From an uncultured Candidatus Cloacimonadota bacterium (GTDB taxonomy: Bacteria > Cloacimonadota > Cloacimonadia > Cloacimonadales > TCS61): a stretch of DNA of 64,000 nt. A program made the translations under genes and the position numbers. The notes under the pieces were generated by a model. That model did not search any database, was not told where the DNA came from, and worked only from the letters and a program-made list of their open reading frames with translations. Below are positions 1-56,800 of the stretch, piece after piece; positions within the stretch are counted from its first letter, which is position 1, and each line of letters starts with the position of its first letter. The stretch spans positions 989-64,988 of the forward strand of contig CAZRXY010000014.1 in assembly GCA_964604155.1 (NCBI GenBank). The letters are read 5' to 3'.

Positions 1-1383
1 AGAATAGTTTTCATAAAACAGGTTATTGATGATCTCTGGCTGGCTCATTGTACGGCAGGCAATAGCGCCGCCACGGTCTGCCACATTATTTCTGAATATG
101 CAGTTTTCGATCCTGATTTTTGAAAAATTATTGATAGATAATGCACCACCCGCCTGGGCTGTATCGCCCGTCGCCTTGGCGTATTCCACAATCGCATAAC
201 GAAAGATAGAGCTGTCCTGATATGCCTTCGTGAAGGGAAATCTTATACCGTTCCAGGCAGAACGATGCGAACCATCAATCCCAAAATCATCTGGATCACT
301 GGAAGTAAACAGCACTCTATTATCTGCTGTGCCCTCTGCCCGGATGCTGCCCTGCACCTCTAATTTATAATAACCGGCAAATTCCACTCTCACCCCGGGA
401 GCTATCACAAGAACTGCATCCGCTATGATTGTGATATCACCGATAACGCGAATAGTGTCTGCCTGCCATAATGTATTATCAGAAATTTCACCAGATACTT
501 CCTCCATCTCTCGAAGTATCTGTTGATAAGAAAAATTTCTCTCGCTTCCGCTTTTGCCATCTATTAGTCGGGCAGGAAAAATCCGGCAGCCATGACCAAT
601 AGCAGGAGAATCCGCTTGAAGACTGAAATCAAGATTAGCAGGATCATCAAATAAAGGGTCTTCACCAATTGTATTATTAAATTCCTGAAATCCGGCAGCC
701 TGCCAGACAAAAGGCTCAAATCAACCATAATCACAGAGGATTGACACATGTCGAAGTAGATCGTAATTGAGATTCTCATCACTAAACCATGACCAGTTAT
801 CATGAAAATCCGGCAAGCCCCCCTGACCACTTACAGCCACATTTATTCCTGTAGGTATCCATTCCATGGAGAAACCTGTAAGATAATTATACTCGTCTCC
901 TGTCTCGATAGAATTCGCAAAAATATTGTGATGTAATTCAATATCAGAACCTGTACCCATAAACCTGAAACAATAATCATCATTATTATAAAAGGTGCAA
1001 TAACTCACGCTCCCCACCGGCTTTGCCAGATACAAGCCGCTCTCACCACGATAATGAATATCGCCATTGATTATTATGCAATCCTGAATATCGAGCCTGT
1101 TATTGCAATAAGATATTGATAGCTCAGCCCCATCAAGATCAAGTATCGCCCCGTTTCCTTCTATGAATACATCTTCACCCTCTCTCCCTTCCAGATGATT
1201 TGTCTGCGGATTAAGGCTTTTGCCTATCCATAATCCGCCGCTATATATCACGCCAGTCTCCAGAACCAGATAGCGATCATAATTTCCCTCAGGCTCAGAC
1301 AAATCATAGGCTTCCTGCAAGCTTACTGCATTCAAACACATATTTATCAGAAATAAAAATATATAATTAAGAGCTTTTTCCAT
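1..1383 (-). CDS. Putative secreted selenoprotein, parallel beta-helix protein; in-frame TGA at 721-723 (codon 221); 3' end runs off the window
   Basis: ATG at 1383 gives a signal-peptide-like MEKALNYIFLFLINMCLNA. After TGA 723-721 the frame stays open for 240 codons to base 1 (FEPFVWQAAGFQEFNNTIGEDPLFDDPANLDFSLQADSPAIGHG...WNGIRF...GGALSI...IENCIFRNNVADRGGAI). SECIS-like hairpin at 691-707. Confidence 0.7.
691..707 (-). promoter_or_regulatory. Candidate bacterial SECIS element
   Basis: UCUGGCA-GGC-UGCCGGA, 7-bp stem starting 13 nt after the UGA, same spacing and stem length as the selD hairpin. Confidence 0.65.
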
Positions 1384-1760: not shown

Positions 1761-3050
1761 TCACTGATTCCAGGCGGCAGCGTATTGTCTTATATTAAAT
1801 TTTCGCTCCAGTCCTTTATCATTCATGTATCTTATTTTACCAAAGACAGCTCTTTCTTTCCAGGGATGATCATGCAGACCGTAACACCAGGCAATGCCGG
1901 CAAAGCTATTTGCATCCCTGCCATCGAGTTCATATTTATTATTCAGATAAATAGTCCTCTCAAAAGCCTCCTGGGGAGATTTTGTCCATTCAATGATTTT
2001 TTTACCCCAATACATCCGCATATAGTTATGCATGAAGCCGGTTTTGAGCATTTCATTTTGTGCCGCATTCCAATAGATATCATGAGTATCAGCCTGTTCA
2101 AGCTGCCTGAGAGTATAAAGGTATTCCCGTTTGTCCTCAGCATGCAGTTTCAGGCTGATTTTAGCCCATCCCGGCACGGCATTTTCATATTTGTCATAAT
2201 CGGGTGTGAACCAGACAAAATTGATTGCCAGTTCTCGCCGAATAATAAGCTGCTCAAGAAAGGCGTTTTTTGCAGCTTCAGGAACCTCTGCCGCCAAAAT
2301 CTGCAGAGAAATATCCAGTGAAGATATCTGACCAAAATGCAGATACGGACTCAGGCATGATCTAATCTCCAGGCTTGGATCATTCGATTTTTCGTGATAG
2401 CCGGCAAGCTTGATATCTATGAATTTTGCCAGCAGTTTTTGAGCCTCTATATAGCCACCTTTGAATGGTAACTGGGATTCAGATGTGAAGCTATCCCGGA
2501 TTTTGTCGAGAGACAGTGATTCCTTTGTCACTAAGGTATGATCTTTACTGCTTACCAGGGGGAAATTCTCTTGCAGCGGCATTAAATAATCATCCAGATA
2601 CCGCTTTATCCTTGGACGCAAGGTGCGGGCACCGATCTCCGCTTTATCGGAGGCGACCGTAACCGGTACAATGGTATCGGTATTTATTATCCTGCTGGGG
2701 CAAGATATGTTTTTAAGAATGGCTTTTCGCCAGCTTCTCTGGATACTCAGCCAGCCCCTGTCCATAATCAGCATTTCCGCCCCGATAGCGAGTCTGGAGA
2801 CTTCTTTTACTATATCTCCTTTTTTTATTATAAAGCCAATACGTTTTTCGGTAAGCCGGGCAAACACTTCTCTGATACCTTGCAGCATAAAGATATAATG
2901 CGCATTTTGTGCTTCCGGAAAATCTGTGAGCACAAAGCAGACCAGCAATGGCAGCCTTTGTTTATTTGCCTGATCTATGGCAAAATTCAGAGCTTGATTA
3001 TATTCGGCTCTCTGAGCCTGCTGCATCCAATATAATATATAGCCTGGCAT
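1761..3050 (-). CDS. phrB: Class II CPD photolyase
   Basis: LYWMQQAQR N-terminus; YLHFGQIS, GFMHNYMRMYWGKKI and DGRDANSFAG motifs. Confidence 0.92.
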   Translation of the reverse strand: MPGYILYWMQQAQRAEYNQALNFAIDQANKQRLPLLVCFVLTDFPEAQNAHYIFMLQGIREVFARLTEKRIGFIIKKGDIVKEVSRLAIGAEMLIMDRGWLSIQRSWRKAILKNISCPSRIINTDTIVPVTVASDKAEIGARTLRPRIKRYLDDYLMPLQENFPLVSSKDHTLVTKESLSLDKIRDSFTSESQLPFKGGYIEAQKLLAKFIDIKLAGYHEKSNDPSLEIRSCLSPYLHFGQISSLDISLQILAAEVPEAAKNAFLEQLIIRRELAINFVWFTPDYDKYENAVPGWAKISLKLHAEDKREYLYTLRQLEQADTHDIYWNAAQNEMLKTGFMHNYMRMYWGKKIIEWTKSPQEAFERTIYLNNKYELDGRDANSFAGIAWCYGLHDHPWKERAVFGKIRYMNDKGLERKFNIRQYAAAWNQ

Positions 3051-3065
3051 GAAAATATCCGCAAT

Positions 3066-6000
3066 TTATCTGATGATCAGCAATTTTTTCTGTTCACAAG
3101 TCTTACCGGAATTCATTCGGTAAAAATACACTCCTGAAGCAACCGCCCGGTTTTGCCGGTCTTTTCCATCCCATCCGGTGAGATGTGAACCGGATGCAAG
3201 GCAATGCGAAACTAATTGGCGGATAAATTGCCCGCGGCTGTTATAGATATTTATCTCAACAAATGCCGGCTGAGCTATGGAAAAGGGAATATTGATCTGA
3301 ATTCTATCATCACTGAAGTAGCCCGGATTAGGGTAGCATTGATGCAATGTAGTTATCGGGCAAAGATCATTATCATCATCTTCTCCCATCAAAGCTGTAA
3401 AAACTATGGCAGCAGAAGGCTCGCCTGTAATAGCATTGGCAGTAAAATTTATTTGCGGCTCAAAAGTGAATTCCTCTGCGTTATATGTCTTTAGCCGCAG
3501 CGTAAGTGGCTGATGCTCCAGATTTCCTCCTATCGTAAAATACCAGAATCCGGATTCTCCCAAATATAAACCCTCCCCGTGACATATTCCCGCATCATCA
3601 AAAAATGCTGCTTCGCAAACAGAAATATCTGCGATGTCATCAATAGATAATTCACCAAGCAGCGTCATATTATTCTCGAATCCAGCTGCCATTTGCCATT
3701 GCCTGTCATTACTAAACGTCCTGCGATCATAAGCTGAGGCTCTTTGCTCTCCATAAATCAATGTATCCGCCTGAGACATTTTTAGTTTGTAGCCCACTCG
3801 CGGCTCTACCATATCCAATTGACCTACCCACCCCCAGTTATCAAACCAGGTGCTTGAAACATGCTGAGCCTTCATCTGGATGGCATTAGGCTCAAGAGGA
3901 ACCATAAAATCTGCAAGAGTATATGCCTCCTGAGGAAGGTGACCTATCCAGTTCCAGTCTGTAGTCAGCGGAACAGGCATATCAAGAGGAGCAGCTTGTC
4001 CCGTTACGGTAAATCCTTCATAAGCTTCTGACATCTTTAAAAGATACATCCTGCCGGCTTCCAGCTCAGATAATTGTCCCACCCAGCCCCAATTTTCAAA
4101 CCAGGTAGTTGAAATATTCTGGCTCTTGATCTGCTCGGCATTGCTCTCCAGCTCCGCCAGAACACTTACAATCTGAGCATCCTCGGGAAGCGTGTTAAAT
4201 GATATCCAGTTCCAGTTCTGAACCAGATCATAACTGGCTGTGAGGCAGATCCCATTAACTATCACGCAAATTGTATCTGTCACGCTGAATTCACCATCAG
4301 AAAGCCATATACTCACAAAATCCGTACCGGAAAAATCTGTAGGTGCTGTCAGCATAACCTGCATTCCATAAATTTCGTAGAGGATTTCTGCAGCCTCTAT
4401 AGTGAGCATAAGTTCATCGCTATCTATATCTCCTCCATAAATGCTGATATCTATCGTGATGCTTTCATTTTGCTCAATTTCAATTTCAGCGGGTAAATCC
4501 AGCCAGGGCGGGTCATTTACCGGTTCCACTATCACCAAGGCTGTATCTTCTGCGGTAGCACGTCCCTGCCCGTCATCTAAGTAAAAAATCAATTCTTCCT
4601 CTCCATACCAGTCAGCTTCGGCATAAAAGGTTACAGACAGGCCATTTATCTCGGTGAAGATAAATTCACACTCACTTATCGATAGCAGAAGCTCATCATT
4701 ATCAATATCATTAATGTATGGAGCAAGATTAATAGTAAGGCTTTCATCTTCCAGAAAGATAAAACTCTCAGGCAAATCTATCTCCGGCGCATCATTCACC
4801 GGCAGCACTTCTATAATGATCATATCTGTTGCTGTAGCTCGCAATTGCTGGTCACTTATGGTTATATTCACCTGCACCGAGCCAAACCAGTTTGCAGCAG
4901 CACTAAAAAATATCTCCAGACCGCTGAAGCTGTGAAATAGATTCTCCTCATTATAATCAACACTGCTTATAATCAGATCATCATTATCTATATCAAAGGC
5001 ATAAGGCGAGATATCAAAATTCAGGCTTTCGTCTTCATTAAATGAAATATATTCCGGCAAATCCAGCACGGGTGGATCATTCACAGGGGTCACTATTATT
5101 ATCACCTCAGCCTGAGCTATTGCCCGTCCCTGCATATCATCTACCGTAAATACCAGAACTTCCTCGCCAAACCAGTTTTCCAAAGCAGTTAAGGTCACAA
5201 TATAATTATCAATCGAAGCAAATACATGTACTCCTCCGGAGACGGAAAGAAACAGCTGATCTCCATCAATATCAAAGATATAATCTGCAAAATCTATAGT
5301 AAGGCTCTCATCTTCGGCAAAAGTAAAACTATCAGGCAATTCTATCTCCGGGTCATCATTCACCGGCGACACTATTATGATCACTTCGTCCTCAGCTATT
5401 GCCCGCCCCTGCATATCATCTACCGTAAATACCAGAACTTCCTCACCAAACCAGTTTTCGTTAGCAGTTAAGGTCACAGCATAATTATCAATCGCAGCAA
5501 ATACATTTACTCCACCGGAGACAGCCAGCACCAACTCATCTCCATCAATATCAAAGATATAATCTGCAAAATCTATAACAAGGCTCTCATCTTCGGCAAA
5601 AGTAAAACTCTCAGGCAATTCTATCTCCGGGCCATCATTCATCGGCGTAACTATTATAATCACTTCGTCCTCAGCAATTGCCCGATCCTGCATATCATCT
5701 ACCGTGAATACCAGAACTTCCTCACCAAACCAGTTTTCCAAAGCAGTTAAGGTCACAGCATAATCATCAATCGCAGCAAATACATTTACTCCACCAGAGA
5801 CGGAAAGCACCAGCTCATCTCCATCAATATCAAAGATATAATCTGCAAAATCTATTGTAAGGCTCTCATCTTCCGCAAAAGTGAAGCTTTCAGGCAGTTC
5901 GATCTCTGGAGGGTCATTTACTGGGGCTACCACTACGGTCACTTCATCCTGAACTATTGCTCGTCTTTGCTGATCACTTATCGTAATCATCACTTGAGTT

Positions 6001-9000
6001 GCTCCAAACCAGTTTTCCGCAGCACTAAGATAGATATCCATTTCACTGAAACTAATATATAGATTTTCTTCATCATAATCAACGCCGATTATTACGAGCT
6101 CATCATTATCGATATCAAAGGCATAAGGAGACAGATTATATATCAGGCTCTCATCTTCATTGAAAAAGATATATTCAGGTAATTCCAGAACCGGAGGATC
6201 ATTAACTGGTAAAACTATGATGATCACTTCATCCTCAGCTATTGCCCGTCCCTGCTGGTCATCTACCGTAAATATCAGAACTTCCTCGCCAAACCAGTTT
6301 TCTGCTGCGGAAAAGCTAACCAAAAAGCCTTCTATCCCTGCAAATACATTTTCGCCTTCTAAAACCGAAAGTTCAAGCTCATCCCCCTCAATGTCATATA
6401 TATAGGGGGCAAAATCTATTGTAAGGCTCTCATCTTCGGCAAAGGTAAAACTCTCGGGTAATTCGATAACCGGAGGATCATTCACGGATGCTACATTGAC
6501 TAATACGCTATCTGTTACATGGATTTCATGTTCAGTATTTAGCAGATGGAAAAACAGCTCTTCGCTACCAAACCAATCGGCAGGTGGCAATATCTCCACA
6601 CTGAAACCCGAGATTGATACTTCCAGATTGTTATTGCCGGAAACCGTCAAATCCAATTCATAACCGGCATTATTCTGGATATAATTAGAAAAATCTCTGA
6701 TGAACAGCGTATCTTCAAAAAACGAGAAATTAGCAGGCAGATTTAATTGAGGCATTTCCAATACTTCAATGATAGTCACTAATATCTGATCCGTATCATA
6801 AAGCTCTCCGTCACTTAGGACAAATTCAAGCGATTCACTACCCGCAGAACCGGAAAATGTCACCAGATAATCTTCTATTTCCACATTGACAAATTCCGGG
6901 ACACTAAGCAGTGTAAGCACCAGATATTCATCATCCACATCACTGCAGAAATTATAAAAATCCACTGTTAGTTCCGTATCTTCATAAAAACTGAATTCAT
7001 CCGGCAAACTGAGCACCGGAGCATCATTCACCGGAATCACTTCTAATAAAACTGCATCAGAGGCTATAGCCCTTGAAGAATTATCTGTTATAGTAATAGT
7101 AACCACTACTGAACCGAACCAATCAGTTGCAGCACTAAAATGCAGCATCATTTCGTTAATTGTTGTATATAAATTAATTTCATCATATTCCACGCTCAAA
7201 ATTTCCAGCTCGTCATTATCAATATCATAAGAATATAGAGATATATCAAATATCAGGTTCTCGTCTTCATTAAATGAAATATATTCCGGCAAATCCAGCA
7301 CGGGTGGATCATTCACAGGGGTCACTATTATTGTCACTTCGTCCTCGGCAATTGCCCTCCCCTGCATATCATCTACCGTAAATACCAGAACTTCCTCGCC
7401 AAACCAGTTTTCGATAGCAGTTAAGGTCACAATATAATTATCAATCGCAGCAAATACATGTACTCCACTGGAGACGGAAAGCACCAGCTCATCTCCATCA
7501 ATATCAAAGATATAATCTGCAAAATCTATAGTTAAGCTCTCATCTTCGGCAAAAGTAAAACTCTCCGGCAATTCTATCTCCGGGTCATCATTCACCGGCG
7601 TTACTATTATTGTCACTTCGTCCTCAGCAATTGCCCGACCCTGCATATCATCTACCGTAAATACCAGAACCTCCTCACCAAACCAGTTTTCCAAAGCAGT
7701 TAAGGTCACAATATAATTATCGATCGCAGCAAATACATTTACTCCGCCGGAGACGGAAAGCACCAGCTCATCTCCATCAATATCAAAGATATAATCTGCA
7801 AAATCTATAACAAGGCTCTCATCTTCGGCAAAAGTAAAACTATCAGGAAGATAAATTTCAGGCGGGTCATTCACACCGATGATATTGATAATAGTAGTCC
7901 CGGTTACCTCAGCACCACCCGCATCCGTGACATGCAGACTTATTTCGGTAGTGCCGAACCAGTTTTCCTGCGGGATCAGGTTAAAACAATAGTTGTCTAT
8001 TATATCATCATCATCTCCATATAACGGCAGGAAATTGGGGGGATAGCCGGCAACCCCGCCAGGTATTGTCTGTACCTCCAAATCTATTGAATAAATGAGA
8101 TTTTCACTTACATCATATATCATGAAATGCAAAGTCTCTATCTCTTCCGTGTAAACCTCAAAATTCGTATAATTAGTACTCCCCCACCTGTAGCCAATCC
8201 CGCGGCATTCATCACCGACAAAAGCCCCTATCACATCATCGCTGTCTATACCTGAGCCATTGATCATAACCCGCCCATAAACCGTCATTGAAAGCGGATA
8301 TTCAACCGGCTGCCAGTTAATCTCGGCTTCTTCCATGGTAATATATTCACTAAGCTGCCACTCAAGCATGACATCATCTCCATCAATATCATAAATTCTG
8401 TCATTTAAATCAAGCACATATTCCGAATTTTCCAGCCAGCTCAATTCCTCAGGTAAATCCAAAAACGGTGGATCATTTACCGGTAGAAATATTACCTCCA
8501 CAGAATCATTCGCGGTAAGTCCGGCTGGGTCATAAACAGTAAATTCCAGCACTTCAGAACCATTCCAATCCACGGGTGCACTAAAAGAAACCATATAACC
8601 GGAAATCTCCGCATTGATGTATTCTCCTGCTACGCTCAATTCCAAAATCAGCTCATCTCCATCTTCATCACTAATATACTGCATGAAATCAATAACAGCG
8701 GTTTCATCTTCATTCAATGTTATGTCCACAGGCAGATCTATCTGAGGTGCATGGTTACCAATAAGCACAATGATATCTAAGACATCCGAAACCGGGCTGT
8801 TGGATTGATCAAATACGTAAAAAGTAACACTTTCTGATCCACTCCATTCCGGTGATGAACTAAATTGTAGATTTTCGTAGATATTCTCATAATCACAATC
8901 TATCTCCAGATATGTGGGAAACCCCACCATCCCACCAGGATTACTGTTAACCTGATTCTCGCAGACCCAGACGCGATTGCTTGACGGGTCCCTGAGCCTG

Positions 9001-9761
9001 AATTGCATAGCCTCTACTACTTCACCCTGAACTGTCATACTGATATAGCTTCTGCCACCAGAAGGCTGCAAAGTGCTTATTCCACGGCATTCATCTTCCA
9101 CAAACACACCCGCCTGATAGCTGAGCGGAGCTGCTTCTCCATCTATCTCCATATAGGCATACACATATGTAAATGAGTTATAAGCTGCCGCTATCCATTC
9201 TTCAGCCATGATCTCTATCATCACCTGCTCATTATCAGTCCAGGATATCCCCAAAAACTCATCATCCTCATCGTAGATAAAGGGCCTGATATCAAAAATA
9301 TAATTCTCTGTATTATGGAATTCTACTGCAGCAGGCAGTGATATCTCCGGCGGTGCATTGGGGGCAATGCCTCCGGTAGCATTTATCTCGATAAAATTCG
9401 GCGGGTAGCCAATATCATGACCGGGCCAGCTCTGCACCGTCTCTTCTGCTTCATATATAATATTTGAACTTGATTCCCAAACCAAAAAATTGATTGTTTC
9501 TATAGATTCACCCTGTATGTTCAGCACGCCATATGACGAATTATTATACACAAATATCGTGGCTATTCCCCGGCATTCTTCCCCCACGAATGCTCCCAGT
9601 AAATCACCCGCGGAAGCACAAAGCCCATTTATCATCACTTCACAATATGCCACCGTACTATTTGTATAGACTACCGGCTGCCAGTCCGGCGTCCTTTCAT
9701 CACCCCAGACAAATATAAGAATACTCAAAATAATCAAAATCAGTAAAATATGTTTTATCAT
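3066..9761 (-). CDS. 2231-aa acidic secreted/surface protein with many cadherin-like (tandem-95-type) Ig repeats and a C-terminal FlgD-Ig/T9SS-like domain
   Basis: Signal peptide; repeated VxPVNDxP-x-LPxxFxFxEDE...DxDGD...ENWFG units; C-terminal YPNP...YNSRGQ...WDGKD...KKLLIIR. Confidence 0.85.
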   Translation of the reverse strand: MIKHILLILIILSILIFVWGDERTPDWQPVVYTNSTVAYCEVMINGLCASAGDLLGAFVGEECRGIATIFVYNNSSYGVLNIQGESIETINFLVWESSSNIIYEAEETVQSWPGHDIGYPPNFIEINATGGIAPNAPPEISLPAAVEFHNTENYIFDIRPFIYDEDDEFLGISWTDNEQVMIEIMAEEWIAAAYNSFTYVYAYMEIDGEAAPLSYQAGVFVEDECRGISTLQPSGGRSYISMTVQGEVVEAMQFRLRDPSSNRVWVCENQVNSNPGGMVGFPTYLEIDCDYENIYENLQFSSSPEWSGSESVTFYVFDQSNSPVSDVLDIIVLIGNHAPQIDLPVDITLNEDETAVIDFMQYISDEDGDELILELSVAGEYINAEISGYMVSFSAPVDWNGSEVLEFTVYDPAGLTANDSVEVIFLPVNDPPFLDLPEELSWLENSEYVLDLNDRIYDIDGDDVMLEWQLSEYITMEEAEINWQPVEYPLSMTVYGRVMINGSGIDSDDVIGAFVGDECRGIGYRWGSTNYTNFEVYTEEIETLHFMIYDVSENLIYSIDLEVQTIPGGVAGYPPNFLPLYGDDDDIIDNYCFNLIPQENWFGTTEISLHVTDAGGAEVTGTTIINIIGVNDPPEIYLPDSFTFAEDESLVIDFADYIFDIDGDELVLSVSGGVNVFAAIDNYIVTLTALENWFGEEVLVFTVDDMQGRAIAEDEVTIIVTPVNDDPEIELPESFTFAEDESLTIDFADYIFDIDGDELVLSVSSGVHVFAAIDNYIVTLTAIENWFGEEVLVFTVDDMQGRAIAEDEVTIIVTPVNDPPVLDLPEYISFNEDENLIFDISLYSYDIDNDELEILSVEYDEINLYTTINEMMLHFSAATDWFGSVVVTITITDNSSRAIASDAVLLEVIPVNDAPVLSLPDEFSFYEDTELTVDFYNFCSDVDDEYLVLTLLSVPEFVNVEIEDYLVTFSGSAGSESLEFVLSDGELYDTDQILVTIIEVLEMPQLNLPANFSFFEDTLFIRDFSNYIQNNAGYELDLTVSGNNNLEVSISGFSVEILPPADWFGSEELFFHLLNTEHEIHVTDSVLVNVASVNDPPVIELPESFTFAEDESLTIDFAPYIYDIEGDELELSVLEGENVFAGIEGFLVSFSAAENWFGEEVLIFTVDDQQGRAIAEDEVIIIVLPVNDPPVLELPEYIFFNEDESLIYNLSPYAFDIDNDELVIIGVDYDEENLYISFSEMDIYLSAAENWFGATQVMITISDQQRRAIVQDEVTVVVAPVNDPPEIELPESFTFAEDESLTIDFADYIFDIDGDELVLSVSGGVNVFAAIDDYAVTLTALENWFGEEVLVFTVDDMQDRAIAEDEVIIIVTPMNDGPEIELPESFTFAEDESLVIDFADYIFDIDGDELVLAVSGGVNVFAAIDNYAVTLTANENWFGEEVLVFTVDDMQGRAIAEDEVIIIVSPVNDDPEIELPDSFTFAEDESLTIDFADYIFDIDGDQLFLSVSGGVHVFASIDNYIVTLTALENWFGEEVLVFTVDDMQGRAIAQAEVIIIVTPVNDPPVLDLPEYISFNEDESLNFDISPYAFDIDNDDLIISSVDYNEENLFHSFSGLEIFFSAAANWFGSVQVNITISDQQLRATATDMIIIEVLPVNDAPEIDLPESFIFLEDESLTINLAPYINDIDNDELLLSISECEFIFTEINGLSVTFYAEADWYGEEELIFYLDDGQGRATAEDTALVIVEPVNDPPWLDLPAEIEIEQNESITIDISIYGGDIDSDELMLTIEAAEILYEIYGMQVMLTAPTDFSGTDFVSIWLSDGEFSVTDTICVIVNGICLTASYDLVQNWNWISFNTLPEDAQIVSVLAELESNAEQIKSQNISTTWFENWGWVGQLSELEAGRMYLLKMSEAYEGFTVTGQAAPLDMPVPLTTDWNWIGHLPQEAYTLADFMVPLEPNAIQMKAQHVSSTWFDNWGWVGQLDMVEPRVGYKLKMSQADTLIYGEQRASAYDRRTFSNDRQWQMAAGFENNMTLLGELSIDDIADISVCEAAFFDDAGICHGEGLYLGESGFWYFTIGGNLEHQPLTLRLKTYNAEEFTFEPQINFTANAITGEPSAAIVFTALMGEDDDNDLCPITTLHQCYPNPGYFSDDRIQINIPFSIAQPAFVEINIYNSRGQFIRQLVSHCLASGSHLTGWDGKDRQNRAVASGVYFYRMNSGKTCEQKKLLIIR
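5076..7865. repeat. Near-identical 279-bp (93-codon) intragenic repeats
   Basis: Units at 5076-5354, 5355-5633, 5634-5912, 7308-7586, 7587-7865, plus a more diverged copy near 6198-6476. Confidence 0.9.
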
Positions 9762-53618: not shown

Positions 53619-54659
53619 ATGGAAATAGTGCCAATGACCCACTATGTGAAAGCTGCGGGCTGAGCAGCCAAGTTAAGCCCGGGGGACCTGGGCAGAGTGA
53701 TGCAGGGTTTGCAATTGCCGGTGAATGATGATTTGTTATTAGGAGTAGGAAGTAGTGATGATGCCGGAATATACAAGCTTACTCCTGAGCTGGCACTTGT
53801 GCAGACTCTCGATTTTATCACACCTGTAGTGGATGATCCTTATATATTTGGTCAGATTGCCGCTGCTAACAGTCTAAGTGATGTCTGGGCGATGGGCGGC
53901 GTAGTTCGCACTGCTTTAAATATAGTGGCTTATGATAATTGTCATCTCACGTTAGATCATCTGAAAGAGATACTGGCTGGTGGTGCGGATAAGATCAGGG
54001 AAGCCGGCGGAGTGATGATGGGCGGTCACACTATTGCTGACCCGGAGATGAAATATGGATTATGCGTCACAGGCACAGTGCATCCGGAAAAATATATCCG
54101 CAATAATACTACTCAGCCAGGAGACGTAATAATTCTCACCAAGCCTTTGGGTATGGGCGTGATCACCACTTCTATCAAAGGCGAGATGACCGATGAAGCT
54201 ACTATAAAAGAAGCTGTCTTTTATATGTCTTATCTTAATAAATATGCTGCTGAAGCAGCAATTCGTATTGGGGTGCACGCCATGACGGATGTTACGGGAT
54301 TTGGCTTATTGGGGCATCTTAATGAAATGACCAATCAGCAAACTTCCATAGAGCTTGAATATAATAATATACCCATTATAGAAGCTGCTCATGAGCTGGC
54401 TTCCTATGGTCTCTTCCCTGCCGGAACCTATTCCAATGAGGGTTATTATCAAGATTATTGCCAGATAGATGAGAACTTGCAAAATGACGATAAAATGTTG
54501 CTTTATGATCCGCAGACCTCTGGTGGTCTACTTCTGAGCGTAGCAGAAAACAAGGCAGAACTTCTTATGCGGGAGCTACGGGAAACCGGAATTTCACGGG
54601 CAGCAGTTATCGGCTGTGTGTCACCTAAAAAACATTGCAATATTATAATCAGGAGATGA
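53619..54659 (+). CDS. selD: Selenide, water dikinase with selenocysteine at codon 15 (TGA 53661-53663)
   Basis: AGGAGG RBS, then MEIVPMTHYVKAAG-U-AAKLSP in frame with the tracked ORF; DDAG, QTLDFITP, ANSLSD, GGHT, TDVTGFGL, DPQTSGGLL. Confidence 0.95.
53677..53693 (+). promoter_or_regulatory. SECIS element of selD
   Basis: GCCCGGG-GGA-CCUGGGC, starting 13 nt after the UGA. Confidence 0.8.
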
Positions 54660-54661
54660 TC

Positions 54662-56800
54662 ATGAAAGCCTGCCGCTTTGGTAATCCCCTTTCTTCTGGG
54701 GCTGTTATAGAAAAGCCTACAAAATTTCTCTCAAAATTTGATGCTTCAGGCATCAGACAAAGCAAAAATTCTACTTCGATCTCTTTTAGTTACAGACTTT
54801 CCAATAATGATGTAGTTTTTGGACTGGGTGAACAGATGGGAGGCATCAATAAACGCGGCAGAAAATATATCACCTATAATACGGATGTAACCGAGCATAC
54901 TCCGGAAAAACTATCTCTATATGGTTCGCACCCTTTTCTTATCGTTCATGGGAAAAAGGATTGGGGGATATTTCTGGATTATCCCGGCGAAATCTTATTT
55001 GATCTAGGATTTTCGCATAAAGACCTGCTAATGATCACCGTGCAGTCTCATGATTTTGATCTCTTTTACTGGTGTGACCTCACCTGGCAGGAAATAGTTA
55101 CGGAATACATCACGCTCACCGGAGGTGTTTACATCCCGCCTAAGTGGGCATTTGGATATCAACAGAGCCGCTGGAGCTATCCTGATGCAGATAGCGTTAG
55201 AGAAATTGCCGATAAATTCCGCCAGCTTGGTATCCCCTGTGATGCAATTTACCTCGATATAGATTATATGCAGGATTATAAGGTATTTTCAATCAATAAA
55301 GAGCGTTTCCCCAAATTCAGCGAATTTGTGAAGGAACTGAAAGATAAAGGTTTTCATCTCGTGCCCATAATTGACCCGGGCGTAAAAATTGAACCCGAAT
55401 ATAAGGTCTTCGATGAAGGGTTCAAAAATAAATATTTCTGTACGGACGAAGCAGGAGAGTTTTACAAGGCAGCGGTTTGGCCCGGTCTCACTCATCTTCC
55501 TGATTTCTCTGCGAAAGCTGTCCGCACCTGGTGGGGCGGGCTTTATGATCAATTGATCACTCAGGGAATTGAAGGCTTCTGGAATGATATGAATGAGCCT
55601 TCCATCTTCTTCTCAGAGCCACGCAGTAAGGTTATTTACGAAAAATTGCATCAAGCTGCCAAAAGTGATAAACTAATTGAGCTGGATTTGAGCTCACTTC
55701 GGGGAGAACTCACTCGATTGCATAACAGCAGAGATGATTATAAAGCCATCTATCAGCACCCGGAAAAGAATTGCAGGATATGCCATGACAATATTCACAA
55801 TCTTTATGGTGCTCAAATGACCCTGGCATTTTCTGACCATGTGCAGGAAAAATATCCTGAGAAAAGGTTTTTAATCTTCAGTCGCTCCAGCTATAGCGGC
55901 TCACAGCGTTATGCCGGCATCTGGTACGGAGATAATAAAAGCTGGTGGCAACACCTGGAAATGAATATCAAAATGCTGATCAATTGTAATCTTGGCGGCT
56001 ATTTTTATAGTGGAGCAGATATTGGCGGATTCGGAGATAACTGCCGGTCTGAACTTCTCGTCCGCTGGCTGCAACTTGGCGTATTCAGTCCGCTTTTCCG
56101 CAATCACTCGGCTATCTATACCCGCAACCAGGAGCCCTGGGCATTTGATGATGATACTCTCATAAATTCTCGCAATATTATCCGCCTGCGTTATGCCTTT
56201 ATGCCCTGGCTGTATTCGCAGTTTTTAGAATTTGCCGGTATGAATATCCCGCTAATCCGCTCATTATACTGGGATTATAATACACCCCGTGCTCTGCAAA
56301 CCGAAGATCAATTCTGCTTTGGCGAAAGCTGCCTCATTGCACCTGTATATAAACCAAACAGCACCGGCAGATTCGTGTACCTGCCGGAAGACCGCTGGCT
56401 TATCTGGAAAGCTCGTACCTGGGAAGAACGCAATCTGGAAATCATAGAAGCCGGAGATCACTATCTAAATTGCCCATTAGACAGACAATTGATCTTTTTC
56501 CGTGAAAATTCACTTTTTGCTCTGCAGGAACCGGAAGATTTCGTGGATCAGCGTAAACCCGATACCTTGATCATTATCGGATTAGTTACCCGCCAGGCAC
56601 AACTCAAATTAATGGTAGATAGCGGTAAATATCCCGCCTTCTCAGGCATGTCTGTTCTGGAAATTTCTGTCAATTTTATTGATAACTGCTTTGAAATCGA
56701 GACCCATACAATAAAAAAAGAGACTCTGCCCTGGAAACATCTGGTTTTTGAGCTCTATGATACCGAGGGTAAACTGGCGATCAGCCATAGAAAAATATAA
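54662..56800 (+). CDS. GH31 alpha-glucosidase
   Basis: PPKWAFGYQQSRWSY, YLDIDYM, WNDMNEP, GADIGGF, FRNHS. Confidence 0.93.
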   Translation: MKACRFGNPLSSGAVIEKPTKFLSKFDASGIRQSKNSTSISFSYRLSNNDVVFGLGEQMGGINKRGRKYITYNTDVTEHTPEKLSLYGSHPFLIVHGKKDWGIFLDYPGEILFDLGFSHKDLLMITVQSHDFDLFYWCDLTWQEIVTEYITLTGGVYIPPKWAFGYQQSRWSYPDADSVREIADKFRQLGIPCDAIYLDIDYMQDYKVFSINKERFPKFSEFVKELKDKGFHLVPIIDPGVKIEPEYKVFDEGFKNKYFCTDEAGEFYKAAVWPGLTHLPDFSAKAVRTWWGGLYDQLITQGIEGFWNDMNEPSIFFSEPRSKVIYEKLHQAAKSDKLIELDLSSLRGELTRLHNSRDDYKAIYQHPEKNCRICHDNIHNLYGAQMTLAFSDHVQEKYPEKRFLIFSRSSYSGSQRYAGIWYGDNKSWWQHLEMNIKMLINCNLGGYFYSGADIGGFGDNCRSELLVRWLQLGVFSPLFRNHSAIYTRNQEPWAFDDDTLINSRNIIRLRYAFMPWLYSQFLEFAGMNIPLIRSLYWDYNTPRALQTEDQFCFGESCLIAPVYKPNSTGRFVYLPEDRWLIWKARTWEERNLEIIEAGDHYLNCPLDRQLIFFRENSLFALQEPEDFVDQRKPDTLIIIGLVTRQAQLKLMVDSGKYPAFSGMSVLEISVNFIDNCFEIETHTIKKETLPWKHLVFELYDTEGKLAISHRKI

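Follow-up and report, generated by a model that had tools for sequence, protein, structure and literature searches.

The 64,000-nucleotide stretch of Cloacimonadota DNA analyzed here (the window) raises a question of decoding: does an in-frame TGA close a protein of 220 residues, or does it encode selenocysteine (Sec) within a much longer one? The frame runs on the minus strand from an ATG at window position 1383, and its single in-frame TGA is codon 221 (723-721). The residues before it are HVSILCDYG, and with Sec at the TGA the motif reads C-D-Y-G-U. The first-pass annotation had claimed that the open reading frame ends at this TGA yet stays free of stops downstream, and we indeed found 240 open codons up to the window edge (minus strand, position 1). 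On the contig past the window, the frame extends to 481 codons beyond the TGA and stops at TAA-TAG-TAG, giving a total of 702 codons. The features discussed below are as follows.

1324..1383, minus strand: putative Sec/SPI signal peptide, residues 1-20, assigned by eye as a hydrophobic N-terminus before the conserved SL[QK]E at 21
577..1323, minus strand: predicted beta-helix 1 with its C-terminal cap, residues 21-269, spanning the TGA (AlphaFold2 pLDDT 90.5, pTM 0.89)
721..750, minus strand: H212-x4-C217-D-Y-G-U221 motif, with the TGA at 723-721 and the Cys codon at 735-733; the His is 99% conserved
690..708, minus strand: bSECIS-like hairpin, 8 bp, loop GGC at +21..+23, judged by consensus rules and controls
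508..576, minus strand: variable linker, residues ~270-292, 23-85 aa across loci, pLDDT under 50
1..507, minus strand: start of predicted beta-helix 2, residues 293-461, which extends past the window edge as far as roughly residue 603 (choice-of-anchor Q)
Outside the window on contig C14, minus strand: T9SS/FlgD-like tail, residues 618-702 (Pfam/NCBIfam), which together with the remainder of helix 2 occupies C14:266-988
53619..54710, plus strand: selD, whose own in-frame TGA is at 53661-53663 and whose hairpin has the same register; it serves as an internal control and belongs to the Sec machinery

The reading frame and its relatives

The segment DPLFDDPANLDFSLQADSPAIG, which had been described as a closing cap lying upstream of the first in-frame start, corresponds to residues 242-263. 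Downstream of the TGA, no ATG, GTG or TTG occurs in frame before the ATG at window 507 (M293), in keeping with that description. A public contig with a depth of 31 is identical across the whole gene and may itself be the source of the present DNA; RNA contigs from runs X5 and X6 contain small 3' pieces of the gene, none of which covers the TGA. A promoter and terminator scan returned nothing above chance. Elsewhere in the window are a photolyase-like gene (1761-3050), named from reading its sequence, and a neighboring 2231-aa repeat protein (3066-9761, minus strand) in which 'QGRAIAEDEV' units recur and whose C-terminal tail is similar.

We surveyed 61 related genomes, 27 of which carry the gene. 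Twenty-five of the 27 loci extend as far as the motif (19 Cys/TGA, five TGA/TGA and one Cys/Cys), one stops at a contig edge, and one holds just residues 1-110. Scans of GTDB contigs (141 loci, best 80 kept) and metagenomes (151 loci, best 80 kept) extended the set to 148 distinct loci after removal of duplicates: 121 C-x3-U, 26 U-x3-U and one C-x3-C. The corresponding codon pairs are TGC/TGA (77), TGT/TGA (44), TGA/TGA (26) and TGT/TGC (1), with no TGG, TAA or TAG at either motif position among these loci. Five loci missed by the motif pattern (three C/U, one U/U and one truncated) were left out of this count. In locus L028 (G016:C208), residues 1-110 alone are joined straight to the C-terminal anchor and tail, which would reflect either an internal deletion removing the Sec motif or a misassembly.

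The check proposed in the first-pass annotation, inspection of the aligned codon in homologues, thus gave TGA or Cys in 148/148 loci, with no stop of another kind and no sense codon other than Cys. Two of the alternatives that it had named fared poorly: the halves share one frame throughout the loci compared, and the TGA is kept across the 148 loci, unlike a private nonsense mutation. The pattern that it predicted, TGC in Sec-negative genomes, was not seen; Cys forms are very rare, and the sole Cys-form genome has selA, selB, selC and selD. Because the loci were the best 80 of 141 and the best 80 of 151, distant Cys forms may be missed.

Exchange between Sec and Cys occurs at both motif positions. 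Position 2 retains Sec in 147/148 loci, and at position 1 a quick tree built with both positions masked gives at least 17 Cys/Sec changes, 8 of which are forced by strong branches. The Cys/Cys locus L016 is a long branch on this tree. Among protein records, P0125 and P0126 are both full-length Cys/Cys proteins, P0126 being a second such case. The sequence past the UGA also behaves as coding: Pro224 is invariant while all four Pro codons are used (142 loci), and in the 26 loci with TGA at position 1 the same conserved residues continue after that TGA.

Judged from these homologues, the gene family is widespread, reaching well beyond Cloacimonadota. Titles of the best 80 of 141 GTDB loci name Cloacimonadota, Eisenbacteria, Planctomycetota, Fibrobacteraceae, Gemmatimonadetes, Acidobacteriota, Bacteroidia and Armatimonadota, and the nearest named records among them are from Cloacimonadota at 75-80% identity. 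The gene is present in 5/251 Planctomycetota genomes. The same 80 loci revealed only local synteny among close kin and no conserved redox partner gene near the gene.

Decoding of the UGA

The hairpin 3' of the UGA, GUCUGGCA[GGC]UGCCGGAU, has 7 bp starting 13 nt past the UGA, or 8 bp counting an outer G-U pair, and places its GGC loop at +21..+23. The selD hairpin in the same window, GCCCGGG[GGA]CCUGGGC, has its loop likewise at +21, which bears out the match between the two that had been noticed earlier. According to the part of PMC13188914 that sets out the rules for bSECIS elements, these have a 4-16 bp stem, a 3-9 nt loop with G in the first two places, a distance of 16-37 nt from the UGA and an MFE of -7.5 or lower. 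The present hairpin satisfies all of these, with 8 bp, a GGC loop, 20 nt spacing and -14.1 kcal/mol over 44 nt. Folding z-scores for the hairpin alone are only modestly better than chance (-0.98 over 60 nt, -1.42 over 44 nt and -2.45 over 28 nt); its weight comes from conservation and position.

For comparison across loci we used a rule of at least 5 bp and a G-led loop at +19..+21, with a register fixed after inspection of the data. By this rule, 58/87 TGA loci, which are related to one another, have the hairpin, and 29/87 have no 5-bp hairpin in the chosen register. The same rule is satisfied by 14.6% of synonymous shuffles (maximum 23% in 200) and by 4.3% of 18,176 other codons. Two stem registers of opposite polarity occur, TGG...GCC in 64 loci and G(T/C)C...GGC in 23, the latter shifted by one base. 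Within the genome, 16/538 TGAs closing long ORFs pass, among them those of FdhA, OS_HP2 and SelD; when all TGAs of the genome are ranked, the present gene heads the list, ahead of FdhA (2nd), OS_HP2 (4th) and SelD (6th). The Cys/Cys genome (G025) keeps the hairpin. In Sec-x3-Sec members this hairpin is spaced 33 nt from one UGA and 21 nt from the other; both distances fall within the consensus range, so that it could serve both.

The genome carries selA, selB, selC (tRNA-Sec) and selD. Three related carriers without a selA match all have tRNA-Sec, and two of them have selB; among 50 further carrier genomes, selA is found in 48, and tRNA-Sec with selB in the remaining 2. This co-occurrence is weak evidence, consistent with Sec insertion, because the selA baseline is high (185/251 Planctomycetota and 49/61 relatives, or 74-80%). 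The Cys/Cys genome G025 (loci L016 and L030) keeps selA, selB, selC and selD, and its SelD has no TGA. At L029 (G008:C50), a SelD match lies inside a 736-codon open frame, which suggests a SelD fusion. Genome-wide recoding of TGA was rejected on the tRNA complement, in which the sole UCA-anticodon tRNA is tRNA-Sec, and on the 538 long ORFs that end at TGA.

The same facts bear on the possibility that the TGA is a true stop followed by a separate downstream gene, a Trp codon, or a nonsense or assembly error. Of 321 database proteins returned, we examined the best 120, and 119 of these terminate at one or the other motif position (106 at C-x-x-x and 13 just before the first motif position), as true stops would have it; their names, where given, are hypothetical or beta-helix. 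Gene callers, however, give such ends at any TGA. A stop would also leave the predicted domain cap after the TGA with no start codon before M293, and it sits poorly with Cys/Cys forms that run whole and with the conserved residues that follow a position-1 TGA in 26 loci. In favor of Trp, two full-length database records carry W at both motif positions. These entries, seen as protein records alone, are probably code-4 gene calls; P0003 also carries W where its relatives end, which fits such a call. A search for the DNA behind the W/W protein P0004 returned no match. No TGG occurs in 148 loci, and the lone UCA-anticodon tRNA and the TGA-ended ORFs argue against Trp as well. We regard this whole group of explanations as very improbable. 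The combined codon and hairpin patterns make it almost certain that the in-frame UGA encodes selenocysteine, and we would expect, with the same assurance, that SelB, bound to the hairpin at +21, inserts Sec there.

Predicted fold and probable export of the protein

The modeled protein is a right-handed parallel, pectin-lyase-like beta-helix. This agrees with the earlier proposal of a beta-helix bearing a Cys-x3-Sec motif, which the model and 121 C/U loci support and which can now be extended to 702 residues, two beta-helices and a sorting tail. Pfam Beta_helix (PF13229) matches the whole protein above its cut-off at 38.6 bits. The two-domain model has a pTM of 0.86 and a disordered linker; both structure models read U as C. 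Domains 1 and 2 have no detectable repeat relationship with each other. Arg directly precedes domain 2 in 105/118 parsed loci, possibly as the cleavage site of an Arg-specific protease.

Among structural matches to the beta-helix 1 model, the PL6 alginate lyase 7dmk is the best (Z 14.6, rmsd 3.4, 189 aligned), followed by glycosidases, pectate lyases and tailspikes, with NosD (7o0y) at Z 11.0 and adhesins also present. These right-handed parallel beta-helices, including 7dmk, pectate lyases and NosD, share with the present protein the fold (Z 10-14.6) and Pfam Beta_helix; they differ in identity (7-18%), and the titles listed name no selenoprotein. The sequence search of the PDB gave one match, confined to the generic cap, and a Foldseek search of the PDB with beta-helix 1 gave nothing at E 0.001 or better. 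In the ESM Atlas we found only generic beta-helix clusters, whose neighbors carry NosD/Beta_helix families.

Conserved residues are R110/R112/R140, D136, S185, H212, K403 and K505; residue 110 is His in the present protein. In the predicted model, the motif follows the last strand of a ladder ending in R112, M142 and S185. The C217-U221 distance and the groove register are estimated from these strand positions, and we infer that the Cys/Sec pair would sit at the groove end beside the conserved R112, D136, R140, S185 and H212. A second C-x3-C, on the first coil at residues 89-93 (window 1105-1119, minus strand), occurs in most homologues (C89 78%, C93 92%); the present protein has Ser at 89.

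The C-terminal tail scores above curated cut-offs (TIGR04183, 29.2 bits versus 23), and genes for SprA and PorV are found in the genome. PMC11285876 states that T9SS may be present in Cloacimonadota. The protein shares its tail with T9SS type A cargo (Por_Secre_tail, FlgD_ig, choice-of-anchor Q); in contrast to such cargo, its export would hinge on recoding, since the tail is encoded downstream of the UGA and only a chain translated through that codon could be exported. In Planctomycetota the T9SS tail gives way to dockerin-like or other ends. The signal peptide and C-terminal tail probably direct the protein to the cell surface or into the medium, and it is likewise probable that the whole chain, which alone carries the sorting tail, would leave by a type IX-like route.

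Five other TGA-containing genes of this genome, three of them candidates and two controls, are listed here by locus.

L199:177-2276 (contig C96), minus strand: 700-aa protein with a signal peptide, a TGA at 243 in YCVGU (CxxU) and a hairpin loop at +21
L200:240-2465 (contig C128), plus strand: 742-aa protein with a signal peptide, a TGA at 38 in ICFGU and a hairpin at +22
L201:227-3277 (contig C145), minus strand: 1017-aa protein with a signal peptide, a TGA at 62 in UPGC (UxxC) and an 8-bp hairpin at +18
L202:216-1283 (contig C105), minus strand: OS_HP2/DUF1573 (NF041425, 100.3 bits), known selenoprotein control
L203:181-2883 (contig C112), plus strand: formate dehydrogenase alpha (FdhA), named from its motif CARLUH, known selenoprotein control

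The first candidate, which matches no selenoprotein model, carries a T9SS tail along with choice-of-anchor J and D domains. The second combines PKD-like and beta-helix parts with a T9SS tail, and the third, thioredoxin-like by motif, has an anchor J domain and a T9SS tail. These three candidate exported CxxU/UxxC proteins would support extracellular thiol chemistry as a theme.

Possible functions and relation to known selenoproteins

Our main reading, to which we assign a probability of roughly 0.55, is that this is one gene whose UGA is read as Sec, encoding a 702-residue exported protein of two beta-helices with a Cys/Sec redox centre. Cys217 and Sec221 would cycle outside the cell between a selenylsulfide (or diselenide) and the selenol/thiol, and would carry out thiol-disulfide or sulfur exchange with an anionic substrate that R110/R112/R140, D136, S185 and H212 hold on the beta-helix groove; these two steps, taken jointly, we consider somewhat better than an even bet. 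That position 1 alternates freely between Cys and Sec whereas position 2 stays Sec would suit, by analogy with known CxxU enzymes, an attacking Sec and a resolving partner. None of the structural neighbors is a thiol-redox enzyme; most are glycan lyases, hydrolases, tailspikes and adhesins.

That company invites the view that the selenoprotein is instead a glycan-acting enzyme or adhesin, with Arg/Lys grooves that bind anionic polysaccharide and Sec as a nucleophile or as part of a Se-S clasp on the last coil. The ranking of PL6 7dmk and then of glycosidases, pectate lyases and tailspikes, the conservation of R112, D136, R140, K403 and K505, and the dockerin-like tails of some Planctomycetota members all speak for it. 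Set against these are the low identity to such proteins and the empty Foldseek result, the lack of clustered sugar-use genes nearby (80 loci), and the near-fixation of Sec at position 2, where Cys would suffice for a structural clasp; on balance we think it unlikely. Slightly less likely still is a selenoprotein that uses Cys/Sec at the cell surface to bind soft metals or metalloids (Cu(I), Hg, As) and so scavenges or chaperones them. Sco proteins bind Cu by means of a Cys-x3-Cys pair and a His, His212 is 99% conserved, and NosD, a beta-helix of a copper maturation system, appears both among the structural matches and in the families of the ESM Atlas neighbors. The NosD model nevertheless scores below its curated cut-off (PF05048, 14.8 bits versus 23.6), and the 80 loci have no shared neighbors beyond close kin, nor are metal transport or resistance genes conserved near the gene in those loci. 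His212 and Cys217 would, moreover, stand at opposite ends of one predicted strand, too distant to share a single metal unless the loop folds back.

We compared the protein of our main reading with available portions of PMC13188914, PMC13326102, PMC12013277, PMC13745706, PMC1557815 and PMC11285876. The catalogue of 119 prokaryotic selenoprotein families in Table 1 of PMC13188914 has no beta-helix, CxxxU or T9SS entry, and a term search of the accessible text of PMC12013277 gave no matches. The beta-helix fold, C/U-x3-U spacing and T9SS-type tail are peculiar to the present family relative to those 119. With the bacterial SelB/bSECIS CxxU/UxxC selenoproteins covered there, it shares a UGA aligned with Cys, a consensus hairpin, Sec machinery and database truncation. 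No selenoprotein model in Pfam or NCBIfam matches the whole protein, and NCBIfam has no match for the N-domain. No published description of the family was found in the literature searched, mostly open-access papers, and searching selenoprotein, selenocysteine and type IX secretion jointly retrieved no papers. The suggestion that this is not a described selenoprotein family therefore stands, and a new family, with a fold, motif and destination absent from the catalogue compared, is well supported by the sequence evidence.

The same Cys-x3-Sec spacing occurs in trypanosomatid SelK, a eukaryotic protein that we liken to ours by spacing alone. SelK is a small membrane protein. Its CxxxU has been called a putative redox centre in PMC1557815. 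As a tentative extension, the present family may form a new selenoenzyme class with a Cys-x3-Sec or Sec-x3-Sec site on a pectin-lyase-like groove, exported only upon selenium-allowed read-through and carrying out selenium-catalysed chemistry on an extracellular anionic or sulfur substrate. It would then be one member of a secreted selenoproteome so far unrecognised in uncultured bacteria.

PMC13188914 states that Cys homologues are usually much more numerous than Sec forms. Their near-absence here is the opposite of that pattern and may be the reason that searches based on Sec/Cys homology overlooked the family. Re-annotation would be needed, given that 119 of the best 120 database proteins (321 returned) end at a motif position and the family is thereby cut in two. 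The natural Cys/Sec, Sec/Sec and Cys/Cys versions offer a clean test case for why Sec is retained, and the Sec/Sec versions probe whether one hairpin decodes two UGAs four codons apart. If true, the present reading would add a fold, a motif and a T9SS-type export location to the bacterial selenoproteins.
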